Shown in pieces: positions 50,022-58,250 of a stretch of 64,000 nt of DNA (its first letter is position 1; the number at the start of each line of letters is the position of its first letter). A program made the position numbers and the translations under genes. This DNA is from Escherichia coli. GTDB taxonomy: Bacteria; Pseudomonadota; Gammaproteobacteria; Enterobacterales; Enterobacteriaceae. Under the pieces are notes generated by a model. That model was not told the origin of the DNA. It made no database searches and saw only the letters and a list, made by a program, of their open reading frames with translations. Location of the stretch: the NCBI RefSeq assembly GCF_003334405.1, contig NZ_QOWM01000001.1. One strand, given 5' to 3'.

Positions 50022-50260
50022 TTAACAACAGCCTTCTTCTGTATGCAGCAAGGCAAAAAGTTCTGTAACTCCATTGTTATTAACTGCACTGGTTACTAAC
50101 ACGTTGTGCGCTCCAGCTTCCCGTAACCAACTTTTCACCAAAGATATTTGTTCCATGCTGGCTAAATCTGCTTTGGTTACTACTCCAATGACCGGGTGAT
50201 TCATGGCCCGGTAGGGCGTTTTTACCTCTAATTCCTGCTTCAGCGCTGAGATTCCTGCTT
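50022..50260 (-). pseudogene. C-terminal fragment of a EutP/PduV-family small GTPase (yoeF-like remnant)
   Basis: PVIGVVTKADLAS...LFALL resembles the PduV/EutP C-terminus; no N-terminal P-loop region present; truncated at the IS66 junction. Confidence 0.4.
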
Positions 50261-50261
50261 G

Positions 50262-50434
50262 TTGCCGGAAAAGCAGGCACCTGCCGTCTGAACGGTATCG
50301 ATCCGGAAGCGTATCTGCGCCATATTCTGAGCATACTGCCGGAATGGCCCTCCAACCGTGTTGACGAACTCCTGCCATGGAACGTAGTTCTCACCAATAA
50401 ATAAGCGTCAATACGGTGCTCCGTTGACGCTTAC
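50262..50434 (+). mobile_element. IS66-family element remnant: last ~45 codons of transposase plus terminal repeat
   Basis: Translation ...GTCRLNGIDPEAYLRHILSILPEWPSNRVDELLPWNVVLTNK*; about 85-90 percent nucleotide match to the inverted copy at 57659-57805; ends ...CGCTTAC. Confidence 0.65.
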
Positions 50435-50818
50435 TTTAATCCGTTTTCTGAGCTTAGATTTTTCTGTTCCTACCCAGACCGTGGATTTGGAATTCATTTT
50501 TTGTCAGGTCAATGCTAATCGTTAAAACGGCCATAACGCACCTCCACTGGAAGGTTTATCAGTAATATCCTACCGTTGCTTCATGGTCGGGGCGTCCATT
50601 CCATTATTATCGGTTTTCCTTTCTGTTTATAAATGAAAACGCCAGCTGTATTCAGGCTGGCGTCAGGGGAAATGAAGCCTGTTGAGTGAGATTCACCGGT
50701 TCTGGTGCAGAAGCTGCAGATGGCGCAGGGTAAGGACATCTTCTCTTGCCTGCTTAATACAGGACAACAGTGCTGTTTCTGTGGTTAATGGCACTATACC
50801 CTGCATCACTGCATTGTC

Positions 50819-51013
50819 TTACAGCAACTGGTGAGGGCTGGCATAAGTTGCCGGTGTTTCGGTAGAGTCACGGTCATCCACCACGCGGAGTGAATAACCG
50901 TTTTCAGCGGCCTTATTAATCAGTTCAGTGATATTAACACCATCAATGTCAACGACAATGTGCCCCATATCCAGCGCCTGTACGTTAACGCTGTCGGCTT
51001 CCAGTGTCATCAT
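50819..51013 (-). CDS. Hypothetical 64-aa protein
   Basis: ORF with strong SD (GGAGGCGAAATGATG); no family recognised. Confidence 0.3.
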   Translation of the reverse strand: MMTLEADSVNVQALDMGHIVVDIDGVNITELINKAAENGYSLRVVDDRDSTETPATYASPHQLL

Positions 51014-51477
51014 TTCGCCTCCGGATACTTACCCAGGGTAATGTTATTTACCGTTCTGTAATTGTCGCGGGTCATCAGGCCGGTCGCCCTGCGAGCCCGG
51101 AGGATATCGATGCTGTTTATTAACTGAGAGCGGGTACCGGGGTATACAGCAGGGAGGGGGGCTGCAGGAAGGCAACTGGAAGGATAGGAACTGAGCGGTT
51201 CAGTCGCGGAAATCAGTTGCAGAGCTGTAATGATATCTCCGGGAGTGCTGCGTTGGTAGGGGCATCCCGGGATAGAGAAATTTTAGCACTTTGCCCTGAA
51301 TGATTGTAGACGTTCCGAGTACTCGTACCGGTCTGAGTTATTACAGTTAGATATTCACTTTTTCTCCCGCATACTTCACATCTGTCAACGACGGATGAAA
51401 AGTGGTTCTTCCGCAACCTGGGTGGAAGAAAATGGATGAAACTTTCTGGCGAACAAGGATCTAAGCTGTTTTAAGTT

Positions 51478-55507: not shown

Positions 55508-55563
55508 ACATCAATCCTTCTATTATAGTAAATGGAGTAACTGGAGTTACCCCATTATTATTA

Positions 55564-56322
55564 TTATCTTGCAATATGAGTCAGTATATTTACCCACAAC
55601 GCGGTATAGAACGGCCAGGACATAAACTGCTGTGTACCCCAGTGCGGTGAACAGTCACTCATAAAGCAGGCTATTTTCCCGTTGTGATAGTTACCAAAGA
55701 CCAGTAATGGAGCGTTGTTTATTGTTAATACCACCTCAGCATTTTCTTTAGCGATCGCCCGGTTATAACCTAGGAAAAAAGGATATTCAGAGAACCCTTT
55801 AATAACTGGATGTTCAGGTTGTGATGGCTGTGCAATAACACCCTCTGGTTTTTCGACACGATCGTCACCATCTAACATCGTAACCGGGAGCACATCAGCC
55901 AGAACTGTATTTTTATAATTGGCTTTTGCTTCAATTCCCATGAATGAGAGATAGCCGCCAATCATCAATAACCCACCACCGTTATTCACATATTCTTTAA
56001 TCAGTTCGAGAGCGTTTGGTTTTATGCGAAGCTGATAAAAAGTATCATTTTGTAGCAGGAAAGTATTACTACCAATATCACTAATAACGATGGCATCATA
56101 TTGTTCTAACTGTGCCACATCTTCAGGGAAGGCAATTTGTACCGTATGTGCTGGCATATAGGTGACATCTACCTGACTATTTTTCAGACACTGGAGTAAC
56201 CAGGTCGCACCTTCTTCATATTTACTTGAGGTAAAACTGTCATATCCTTTTGAATGAATCATATGAATATGCCAGGATTCCCCAATAAAGAGCACTTTTA
56301 GTGATTTTTTGGTGTTATTCAT
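55564..56322 (-). CDS. Class I glutamine-amidotransferase-like (ThuA-like fold) protein, function unknown
   Basis: 252 aa; VLFIGESW ... YDAIVISDIG ... NGGGLLMIGGYLSF pattern typical of GATase1-like/ThuA-like domains; family assignment tentative. Confidence 0.4.
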   Translation of the reverse strand: MNNTKKSLKVLFIGESWHIHMIHSKGYDSFTSSKYEEGATWLLQCLKNSQVDVTYMPAHTVQIAFPEDVAQLEQYDAIVISDIGSNTFLLQNDTFYQLRIKPNALELIKEYVNNGGGLLMIGGYLSFMGIEAKANYKNTVLADVLPVTMLDGDDRVEKPEGVIAQPSQPEHPVIKGFSEYPFFLGYNRAIAKENAEVVLTINNAPLLVFGNYHNGKIACFMSDCSPHWGTQQFMSWPFYTALWVNILTHIAR

Positions 56323-56335
56323 TCTCTGTCCCTTC

Positions 56336-57550
56336 TTAATGCGTAAAAATAGTTTGCTGATAATGTATACTCTGAATTCGATGTATCACAGATTCATGTT
56401 CAGGCATGTCGGAAGCATTGCTTGTCTCCACCGCTAGGGATGCAAAGGCGCTGGCATAACACAGTGCTGATTCCAGTGATTTTCCTTTCGCAAGTCCTGA
56501 TGCCAGAGAGCCGTTAAACGCATCCCCGGCTCCTGCCGTATTTTTAACGACCGCTGGAAACGCTGGCGAATGAATGAATTTTTTGCCATCAAATGCGAGC
56601 GAGCCCTTGCTACCGAGCGTGATAACCGTGTTTTTTACCCCTTTATTGTGGATAGCTTCTGCAGCTCGTTTAGCTGATTCAAGATCGTGTACGTCTATGC
56701 CGGACAGTAAACCAGCTTCTGTTTCATTGGGGGTGATATAATCAACATCCTGAATAAGTTCGTTGACGATATCATTATAGGGTGCCGGGTTAATAATGAC
56801 CGGGATACTGTTTTTTTGCGCCAATGTGATCGCTTGTTGCAGAGCGGTATAATTTGTTTCGAGCTGCAGAAGTATGACATCAGAATTAATAATCGCTTCT
56901 TTCTGAATAGTTATTTCATCGGACGACATTGTCATGTTGGCACTGGGATAGATCGCAATAACATTATCGCCAGTACCTTCATTAACAAGGATCGTGGCAG
57001 TTCCGGTTTGCGTTTCTTTCGTTTGATAAATTATACTTTTATAAATCTTAGACGAATTCATAAAGTTGATCGCATAATCACTAAAGTGATCTGTACCTAC
57101 TTTTGTTATGAAATAAACATCAGTATCGGCAAAGCTTGCTGCCAGCGCCTGGTTACAGCCTTTTCCCCCCGGTGAAAATATAAAATTACTTGCCAGAAGC
57201 GATTCTCCGATAGTGGGAAGCCTCGGCAAATAACTGATGATATCAACATTAAACGAACCAATAACGCATACTTGACTTTTCATAGTTGAATGGCCTTTTT
57301 TTATTCCCTGGGCTGTATCATAATTTTCAAGCGCATAAGCGATTTCATTTTTCGCAATAGTATCAAGCGAGTCTAGGACGATAAAAGCACCGCCATGACA
57401 TCGAGTCAGATAGCCAAGCCTGGCAAGTTCATTAAGATCTGAACGAATAGTTTCTTTCGTTACATTGAGGCTATTGGACAGATCGGATACTTTTACAGAA
57501 CCGAATTTACTGAGTCGTTTCAATATTTCATGATGGCGTTCAAATTTCAT
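56336..57550 (-). CDS. DeoR-type HTH domain fused to PfkB (ribokinase-like) carbohydrate kinase
   Basis: 404 aa; N-terminal MKFERHHEILKRLSKFGSVKVSDLSNSLNVTKETIRSDLNELARLGYL (DeoR HTH); kinase motifs GGKGCNQALAAS and TAGAGDAFNGSLASGLAKG. Confidence 0.75.
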   Translation of the reverse strand: MKFERHHEILKRLSKFGSVKVSDLSNSLNVTKETIRSDLNELARLGYLTRCHGGAFIVLDSLDTIAKNEIAYALENYDTAQGIKKGHSTMKSQVCVIGSFNVDIISYLPRLPTIGESLLASNFIFSPGGKGCNQALAASFADTDVYFITKVGTDHFSDYAINFMNSSKIYKSIIYQTKETQTGTATILVNEGTGDNVIAIYPSANMTMSSDEITIQKEAIINSDVILLQLETNYTALQQAITLAQKNSIPVIINPAPYNDIVNELIQDVDYITPNETEAGLLSGIDVHDLESAKRAAEAIHNKGVKNTVITLGSKGSLAFDGKKFIHSPAFPAVVKNTAGAGDAFNGSLASGLAKGKSLESALCYASAFASLAVETSNASDMPEHESVIHRIQSIHYQQTIFTH

Positions 57551-57658
57551 GCTTCACCTCACTTCAGTTACGTTAATATCTATCGATGTATATTGATGTG
57601 ATAATCACCATAAAGTGGCGGGGAAAAGCAAAAAAAAGCAAAAATAGCCTGAGAAAAG

Positions 57659-58250
57659 GTAAGCGTTAATGGAGAATCATATTGATGCTTATTTATTGGT
57701 GAGAACTACGTTCCATGGCAGGAGTTCATCAATACGGTTGGAAGGTTATTCCGGCAGTACGCTCAGGATATGGCGCAGATACGCTTCCGGATCAATGTCG
57801 TTCAGAAGGCAAGTGCCGATAAGCCCATACAACAGTGCACTGCGCTCGCCGCCGAAGAACATAAAGTTTTTATTTCCGAGACAGATGGCACAAAGGGCTT
57901 TTTCCGCGGCATTATGTCTGCCTCCGCCTGACCGTCAACACTGTAATAACAGAGTGCGCCCCACTGATTCAGTACACAGCTGAACCATTCTCCCAGTCTG
58001 GATTTTTGGATAGCGTGGCATTTTTCTCCACCATGCATGCAGTGAGTCCAGTAACAGTTTGCTCTTCTTCTGCCTGACCACAAGATGTGCTGGACTGGTA
58101 AACGATGGGGATACCTGCTTACGCGAGAGCAATAAGTGGCTGGCCACAATTCTCGGTACAAAACTCTGCTGAATAGCAGCGATTTTCCCAGCGTGGTGCG
58201 TCGTTTGCATTTTACTGGTTCTAAGTTAACAATTATCTGTTCACTAATGA
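57659..58250 (-). mobile_element. IS66-family transposase 3' portion (degraded) with terminal repeat; right-hand boundary approximate
   Basis: Minus-strand translation ...FGGERSALLYGLIGTCLLNDIDPEAYLRHILSVLPE*PSNRIDELLPWNVVLTNK* with premature TAA and frameshifts; terminal GTAAGCG at 57659. Confidence 0.6.

Follow-up and report, generated by a model that had tools for sequence, protein, structure and literature searches.

The yeeX-cobU interval of an Escherichia coli genome is very probably an eroded allele of a known island, not an island delimited by IS66

Layout of the interval between yeeX and cobU

The window analysed here is a 64,000-nucleotide stretch of the Escherichia coli contig NZ_QOWM01000001.1 (assembly GCF_003334405.1), and our subject is the DNA between tmaR (yeeX; 49592-49921, plus strand) and cobU (59601-60146, plus strand), which contains two inverted fragments of IS66-family insertion sequences (IS) and a four-gene operon. 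A first-pass annotation had described positions 50022-58250 as a strain-specific accessory island that replaced CP4-44 and was bracketed by the two IS66 ends. Much of its inventory was borne out. The flanks are conserved core genes, tmaR being mapped from the RefSeq feature of genome F829 at 99.4% in a gene order identical to that of K-12, and cobU being identified from its open reading frame (ORF) and the F829 annotation. The cobU-yeeX site is indeed a known variable one, listed with 'CP4-44 (CP4)' (PMC3032704). An ISL3 pseudogene, a relic of the gamma-glutamyltransferase gene ggt and the operon were all found between the IS66 arms, with a nonsense codon in the operon gene for a DMT-family transporter.

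On the yeeX side, the first feature is a relic of pduV with about 60 C-terminal codons (50022-50204, minus strand), which matched the NCBIfam model TIGR02528 (EutP/PduV) over profile positions 86-141 of 142 (E-value 3e-11) and is annotated as EutP/PduV in F829. A filler of 71 bp (50205-50275), identical in K-12, separates it from the left IS66-family stump (50276-50434, plus strand). The 118-codon ORF known in K-12 as 'YoeF' (50022-50378, minus strand) is a chimera across these features. Toward the C-terminus it reads the PduV relic, and toward the N-terminus it runs antisense through the stump, which is the K-12 pseudogene yoeD, and the filler. A literature search on yoeD and yoeF returned unrelated papers only.

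The stump is followed by the tail of a CP4-type island, namely a relic of a DUF957 gene (50693-50785, minus strand; annotated in F829, AST46 and an avian pathogenic E. coli (APEC) strain, and mapped at 100%), an intact yeeW of 64 codons (DUF5983; 50819-51013, minus strand; 100% identical to F829 yeeW and collinear with K-12), and a 3' relic of the toxin gene cbtA (yeeV; 51010-51137, minus strand). The latter corresponds to 131 bases of the 374-bp cbtA feature of F829 and is annotated in AST46 as 'cbtA, missing N-terminus'. From the series yeeS-yeeT-cbeA-cbtA-yeeW that forms the CP4 tail, only yeeW and 128 bp of cbtA are left here, and the rest is present in F829. Next to cbtA lie the last 21 codons of a zinc-ribbon-domain gene of the island backbone (51133-51194, plus strand; bases 349-411 of 411 in F829).

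On the cobU side, the right IS66-family stump (57659-58085, minus strand) is followed by the 5'-end remnant of an IS2-like element of the IS3 family (58112-58327, minus strand), which is 83% identical to K-12 IS2F and 88.7% identical to the K-12 remnant at 2070471-2070661. The terminal repeat of the element stops at 58327; the reverse complement begins TAGACTGGCCCCCTGAATCTCC, which we take to be the IS2 left end. K-12 holds the same remnant (window 58112-58314, 88.7%) between yoeA fragment 2 and yeeP, so it is older than the split between island versions with flu and those with rikA. A fragment of an IS4-family transposase gene (59109-59297, plus strand; annotation mapped at 100%) lies within K-12 yoeG and is collinear with K-12. 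Positions 59207-59210 are the uninterrupted target of K-12 IS5H, where the 4-bp overlap of the K-12 alignment blocks fits the size of an IS5 target duplication. A C-terminal relic of cbiP ('cobalamin biosynthesis protein'; 59306-59449, plus strand) then precedes cobU. An Rfam scan of 49000-60500 returned 0 RNA families, the isrC of K-12 CP4-44 being absent.

Two inverted IS66 stumps

A repeat search of the window recovered two inverted arms of 162 nt each, 50276-50437 and 57656-57817, which are 88% complementary and spaced 7218 nt apart. Aligned with each other, the arms share 143 of 162 positions, up to 41 bp of them in one uninterrupted run, and their BLAST E-value of about 1e-50 puts the match far beyond chance, so they are not unrelated at the nucleotide level. 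Both stumps encode the C-terminus of the IS66 transposase TnpC (...GTCRLNGIDPEAYLRHIL...LPWNVVLTNK*), and their 3' termini point inward with the terminal repeat GTAAGCG on each. The relatedness, inversion and inward orientation proposed earlier thus hold. The left start had been set at 50262, 14 bp too far left, and the shared stretch, given as the last 45 or so codons, comes to about 42 codons plus the stop in the alignment.

Intact copies of ISEc47 and ISEc23 taken from RefSeq genomes were used as references. Of an ISEc47-like element, the left stump retains the final 159 bp, with 42 TnpC codons, the stop and a terminal repeat ending CGCTTAC at 50428-50434, which is the exact IS terminus. 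It is 98.1% identical to ISEc47 and 96.3% identical to ISEc23 over these 159 bp, and it coincides with K-12 2078516-2078677, that is, yoeD. A 361-bp probe over the left junction (window 50160-50520), spanning the pduV relic, the stump and the island tail, was covered to at least 80% in 3201 of 5426 genomes, including K-12. Here and below, prevalence counts refer to presence among 5426 complete E. coli genomes, mostly at a probe coverage of at least 80%.

The right stump is what remains, 427 bp, of the last 445 bp or so of a divergent IS66 element, with GTAAGCG at 57659-57665 and only 83% identity to ISEc23 and 81% to ISEc47. An in-frame stop and frameshifts interrupt its translation, in which about 140 degenerate tnpC codons are left. 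It occupies the same place in CFT073, inside GI-CFT073-cobU. No intact close relative of it was found in the E. coli genomes or among 72,556 plasmids, in which all matches above 84% were copies of the same relic. A 97.5% copy lies on plasmid AP026488.1 (9001-9438), and the same is seen on a few E. coli IncF/IncI plasmids, where its neighbours are IS1 and unrelated metabolic genes and the rikA cluster is absent. A 100% copy is carried by a 1-Mb record labelled as a Klebsiella pneumoniae plasmid. Because the right stump is 81-83% and the left one 98% identical to intact elements, the two are best assigned, by alignment, to different IS66 lineages and are evidently not the paired products of one event.

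In ISEc47 and ISEc23, both stumps match the tnpC 3' end and the terminal repeat GTAAGCG, but only 159 bp and 427 bp are left of an element of about 2.5 kb, with no tnpA, tnpB or 5' end. Neither stump holds a tnpA-tnpB-tnpC set, only tnpC 3' remnants being present, and with the IS66 5' ends deleted each keeps a single terminus rather than paired terminal inverted repeats. With one terminal repeat and no transposase apiece, neither can transpose.

These observations bear on the possibility that a discrete island was delimited, and perhaps delivered, by the IS66 pair in the manner of a composite transposon and replaced CP4-44 here. The arms are truly homologous inverted IS66 3' ends, the cargo within them is foreign and low in G+C (38-43% across 55400-57600, the kinase half of the operon, vs about 50% in the core), and the exact layout is rare, occurring in 2 of the 5426 genomes. 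However, the left arm is yoeD, present in 3201 genomes, one of which is K-12, where the operon is missing, and yeeW and the cbtA relic of CP4-44 sit inside the supposed island. The arms belong, by their identities to ISEc47 (98% and 81-83%), to different lineages, and they offer inward-pointing 3' terminal repeats alone, with no transposase. The bases adjoining the inner ends, TTTAATCC and the reverse complement CTTTTCTC, differ and are not a duplication. The features of a composite transposon, two copies of one IS with usable ends and a working transposase, are absent, and no transposase ORF is intact anywhere in the interval. No unit running from arm to arm was found at other loci, the operon being single-copy and chromosomal and adjacent to cobU in the 8 genomes inspected, and the distance between the same junctions varies, with the arms 7.2 kb apart here, about 11 kb in F829 and about 32 kb in APEC O25. 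We consider delivery by an IS66 pair very unlikely, and the interval cannot be called bracketed by its IS66 ends as had been proposed.

The arms could also serve as a recombination substrate that inverts the 7.2-kb interior and so alters the orientation or expression of the operon. Their 88% complementarity over 162 nt would favour this, as would the 41-bp perfect run, since RecA-dependent exchange in E. coli is commonly said to need at least 23-27 bp. A synthetic query for the inverted junction, built from the pduV relic and IS66 stump followed by the reverse complement of 57480-57658, was covered to at least 80% in 0 of 5426 genomes, its best matches being the native right junction. No inversion between the arms was thus found in this set, and direct inspection of the locus in 8 genomes showed one orientation in all. 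An invertible segment is therefore highly improbable.

Alleles and deletions at the cobU-yeeX site

Comparison with K-12 indicated what the site is. Window 49001-51140 equals K-12 2079952-2077813 at 99.4%, covering yeeA, tmaR/yeeX, yoeF, yoeD, the DUF957 relic, yeeW and the 3' end of cbtA, which places the left IS66 arm, as yoeD, inside the annotated CP4-44 interval. Window positions 58326-59210 and 59207-60500 correspond to the other end of CP4-44 (yoeG, yeeH; 99.6-99.8%) and to cobU, without IS5H. The location is therefore that of CP4-44, with 99.4-99.8% identity to both of its ends. The middle is different. K-12 has yoeA::IS2, yeeP, isrC, flu, yeeR, yeeS, yeeT, cbeA and a whole cbtA, whereas the window has the zinc-ribbon relic, the ISL3 and ggt relics, the rikA cluster, the right IS66 stump and the IS2-like remnant. 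Since both ends are kept (the DUF957 relic, yeeW and the cbtA relic on one side, the IS4 and cbiP fragments on the other) and the middle alone differs, CP4-44 has not been replaced, contrary to what had been supposed. No P4-type integrase ORF lies in 50205-59304, and the repeat search of the window found no flanking direct repeat or attachment site.

The middle itself is known from a uropathogenic strain, CFT073, and from the APEC strain. GI-CFT073-cobU has been published as c2482-c2528 (PMC6315130). In CFT073, compared from cobU to the zinc-ribbon genes at farthest, and in the APEC strain, blocks 51133-58327 and 58327-60500 are collinear with the window at 99.1-99.3%, and the published island shares with it the right IS66 stump, the rikA cluster, the ggt relic and the ISL3 pseudogene beside cobU. 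In both strains, unlike the window, the DMT transporter gene is intact and there is 9.2 kb more between the IS2-like end and the IS4 fragment. The APEC O25 form alone has about 25 kb more on the yeeX side. Its island measures about 45 kb from yeeX to cobU and holds a complete CP4 tail, dynamin, RdcB and patatin genes, IS100 and ISEc20, together with a 603-bp ORF annotated as 'site-specific integrase' only in this long form.

The interval can therefore not be called strain-specific, with its operon module in 1909 of 5426 genomes and part of a published island. Nor is it present in the same form in most E. coli, since 804 of the 5426 genomes hold at least 80% of it and 2 have the identical form. 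One of these two, AST46, is collinear with window 49001-60500 at 99.69%. An assembly artefact as the source of the layout was rejected on this collinearity over 11.5 kb.

The limits of the accessory DNA were obtained from an island-free allele. In strain 23CRST031 (locus positions 2623-3257), tmaR is followed by a longer pduV relic that is fused directly to a 119-codon C-terminal cbiP relic, and then by cobU. Window homology to this allele stops at 50204 and resumes at 59305, so the accessory DNA is 50205-59304 rather than the 50022-58250 first given, and the pduV relic, to whose end the homology runs, lies outside the island DNA as what looks like the scar of a lost pdu operon. The cbiP relic is its counterpart on the right, the apparent scar of a lost cbi operon. 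By the Salmonella gene order, the two would be what is left of a cbi-pdu region, and a pdu operon is found between tRNA genes and the O-antigen cluster in some E. coli lineages. The island-free allele is contiguous in 202 of 5426 genomes. It contains 280 bp that are missing from the window and thus cannot be derived from the island allele by deletion, and it is the simpler and probably the older state. In about 850 further genomes the cbiP-side half alone is present, so DNA may have been inserted or deleted at other points as well.

Two deletions account for the spacing of the stumps, which are 7.2 kb apart because 3.7 kb and 9.2 kb were removed. F829, the nearest relative of the whole interval, equals the window plus 3677 bp, which carry most of cbtA, cbeA, yeeT, yeeS, an antirestriction relic, a gene of the inovirus-Gp2 family and two zinc-ribbon genes. 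The BLAST breakpoints overlap by GGTAC, a 5-bp microhomology at 51133-51137 that joins the cbtA relic to the last 21 codons of the zinc-ribbon gene. Genes are truncated on both sides of this breakpoint, which argues for a deletion in the window lineage. The second length is the one missing relative to CFT073 and the APEC strain, in which 9237 bp separate the two collinear blocks, with a yaiO-like gene, genes for an acetyltransferase, a glycosyltransferase and a PIG-L protein, ibrAB and an intact gene for a TonB-dependent receptor. This deletion ends exactly at the IS2-like terminus (58327), a pattern that points to an IS-adjacent deletion.

Taken by itself, a comparison of lengths is symmetric, and as a general possibility the short form could be ancestral, with the longer islands of F829 and CFT073 made by later insertions. 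Against this, cbtA is without its 5' part and the zinc-ribbon gene is cut to 21 codons in the window, whereas both are whole in the longer forms, and the contiguous GGTAC junction occurs in 2 of 5426 genomes vs hundreds to thousands for the unbroken flanks. An ancestral short form is thus most improbable. The 3.7-kb deletion is the sole lineage-specific feature of the interval, and it is mechanistically trivial.

All these observations indicate that the interval is very probably a non-mobile, heavily eroded allele of the known cobU-yeeX island (CP4-44 / GI-cobU), and not an island delimited by IS66. Several points weigh against this reading or leave room in it. The 71-bp filler matched neither the longer pduV relic of 23CRST031 nor the intact IS66 references. 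The reading has CP4-type DNA enter at cobU-yeeX, where no tRNA gene lies. The order of events is drawn from a handful of comparison genomes, and some of the shared junctions could have spread by homologous recombination instead of descent. The 41-bp run is in principle long enough for RecA recombination, and a rare inversion could escape a survey of assemblies. For the donor of the segment with the ggt relic and the rikA cluster, the best nucleotide identity is only about 76%.

The rikA cluster and the history of the interval

The cargo between the arms opens with a dead ISL3-family element (51382-53143, plus strand) whose inverted ends, 43 nt long, are 81% complementary. Its transposase gene is split by one frameshift and one stop into ORFs 51478-52221, 52182-52853 and 52932-53093, and it is annotated in F829 as 'ISL3 family transposase, internal stop'. 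An 8-bp direct duplication is not visible at its ends. In 51382-51403 and 53122-53143, just outside the core ISL3 repeats, GGTTCTTCCGCAACCTGGGTG and CACCCAGGTTGCGGAAGAGCC are mutually inverted, and the element has either unusually long imperfect ends of 43 nt or was inserted into a palindromic target. Truncated beside the ISL3 end is the frameshifted C-terminal relic of ggt (53173-53465, plus strand), whose two-frame translation gives the gamma-glutamyltransferase C-terminus with 86-89% amino acid identity to the ends of the intact genes of Citrobacter and S. diarizonae. A terminator scan found a strong hairpin with a 12-pair stem and a T run at 53471-53497, between the convergent ggt relic and phosphotriesterase-like gene, for which it is likely a shared terminator.

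The four minus-strand genes of the operon span 53505-57550 and are homologous to the rikA-stm3548-stm3549-stm3550 cluster of Salmonella Typhimurium, with the same order of DeoR/PfkB kinase, GATase1_like, DMT and phosphotriesterase-like genes as identified by Pfam, NCBIfam and Protein Data Bank (PDB) matches and by synteny in 9 enterobacterial genomes. The first is a fusion of a DeoR helix-turn-helix and a PfkB kinase (56336-57550; 404 aa), a homologue of RikA (STM3547) with HTH_DeoR at residues 5-56 and PfkB at residues 92-382 in Pfam, which scored 279 bits with the NCBIfam ribokinase model, slightly below the cut-off of 299.65. Salmonella RikA was demonstrated in 2026 to be a ribose kinase, and its cluster was reported as conserved in Citrobacter, Escherichia, Budvicia and Proteus, with the substrate given as unknown (PMC13432705). 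The activity has been demonstrated in Salmonella RikA only, and the window kinase, about 80% identical to its S. diarizonae and Citrobacter counterparts, is a putative ribose kinase.

Downstream lie the GATase1_like gene (STM3548 homologue; 55564-56322; PF07090, E-value 1e-111; PDB 2gk3, E-value 7e-145), the DMT-family transporter gene (STM3549 homologue; 54542-55507) and a gene for a phosphotriesterase-related amidohydrolase (53505-54539), homologous to STM3550 and to Proteus Pmi1525 (PDB 3rhg/4qsf, E-value 5e-174). We take 2gk3 to be the solved structure of STM3548. The phosphotriesterase-related match to NCBIfam was below cut-off, and an identity as phospho-furanose lactonase, at 41 bits against a cut-off of 630, is not claimed. 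For Pmi1525, a metal-stimulated esterase activity has been described (PMC5341072). A literature search on operons of phosphotriesterase, lactonase and ribokinase returned nothing specific. A promoter scan of the operon region gave a count that was not above the shuffled expectation, and no promoter is therefore claimed.

Not all four genes are intact. Codon-by-codon comparison with the intact APEC copy showed that the DMT gene is a pseudogene, in which W203 is changed from TGG to TAG at 54899-54901. The annotations of F829, FDAARGOS_772, Res13-Lact-ER02-39 and AST46 give the gene an internal stop, CFT073, the APEC strain and the dog strain FP4 have it intact, and in the genomes inspected W203* appears to accompany the 9.2-kb deletion form. 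The cluster is the only plausibly functional cargo of the interval, and it is crippled here.

In E. coli the module is single-copy, with at least 99% identity wherever present. Its matches were on chromosomes in 2805 of 2811 cases, and it was adjacent to cobU in all 8 genomes inspected. When species-representative genomes were scanned, all four genes turned up together in Citrobacter, S. diarizonae, Budvicia, Providencia, Proteus and Klebsiella spallanzanii, and a three-gene core of GATase1_like, DMT and phosphotriesterase-like genes in Actinobacteria. In the trio of Georgenia, Actinobaculum and Streptomyces, the phosphotriesterase-like protein is 58-64% identical, and a PfkB kinase gene is also adjacent in Georgenia. 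The Actinobacterial trio implies a core that arose long before the cluster spread through enterobacteria, and it suggests an ancient pathway of wide use.

The Citrobacter and S. diarizonae loci align collinearly with window 53172-57645 at about 76% nucleotide identity, up to 14 bp from the IS66 terminus on one side and to about 29 bp from the ISL3 terminus on the other. Protein identities to S. diarizonae and Citrobacter are 79-83% for the RikA homologue and GATase1_like, 85-87% for the phosphotriesterase-like protein and 94-96% for the transporter. In these bacteria the cluster faces the C-terminal end of ggt in convergent orientation. In the Citrobacter locus L012, ggt is an intact ORF of 602 codons followed by five ORFs, which from their lengths alone would fit ugpQ, C, E, A and B. 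The cluster thus natively adjoins an intact ggt there, whereas the E. coli copy travels as cargo of the island, bounded by dead IS elements and accompanied by a ggt that is truncated. The collinearity with these ggt-adjoining loci points to a ggt relic that came with the captured foreign segment and is, by this comparison, not a decayed E. coli ggt.

From the homologies, breakpoints and frequencies we infer an order of events, and mechanisms for the two deletions, IS-adjacent in one case and microhomology-mediated in the other. First, an ancestral cbi-pdu region would have been deleted, leaving the pduV'::'cbiP scar that is uninterrupted in some strains. P4-like (CP4-type) island DNA would then have occupied the scar, and on the yeeX side the ISEc47-like IS66 would have been reduced to its last 159 bp, joined via 71 bp to the pduV relic. 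This is the yoeD/yoeF junction of K-12, common to most E. coli. A 4.5-kb passenger inside the island, with the ggt C-terminus and the rikA cluster, would have been captured from the native ggt neighbourhood of a Citrobacter- or Salmonella-like enterobacterium, with a second, unrelated IS66 element on one side and the ISL3 element on the other, both now dead. The 9.2-kb deletion flush with the IS2-like end would have removed the stretch from yaiO through ibrAB to the TonB receptor. Later, the rare 3.7-kb deletion at GGTAC would have taken away the DNA from cbtA through cbeA, yeeT and yeeS to the zinc-ribbon genes. The DMT transporter would also have gained its nonsense codon in this lineage.

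Every component of the interval had already been annotated or published, including yoeD, yoeF, CP4-44, GI-CFT073-cobU, the rikA cluster, Pmi1525 and 2gk3, and an identical layout is already in RefSeq (AST46), so that the significance beyond correct annotation is small. The comparison yields as by-products the true accessory limits, 50205-59304, against the pduV'::'cbiP scar allele, and the origin of the ggt relic in a captured ggt-rikA segment of Citrobacter/Salmonella-like type. Inverted IS fragments around foreign genes need not delimit a mobile unit, and here they are leftovers of different elements that deletions have brought close to each other at an established hot spot for islands. About a third of E. 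coli genomes carry the rikA cluster as island cargo, and its transporter is inactivated in this lineage. With roughly even chances, the cluster may be a full route for the uptake and breakdown of a ribose-containing ester or lactone, which may combine a metal esterase of the Pmi1525 type and a GATase1-like hydrolase with a DMT importer and with a ribose kinase that bears a fused DeoR repressor domain, and which would have been acquired once with the piece of ggt in the cobU island and would now be in the course of being lost.

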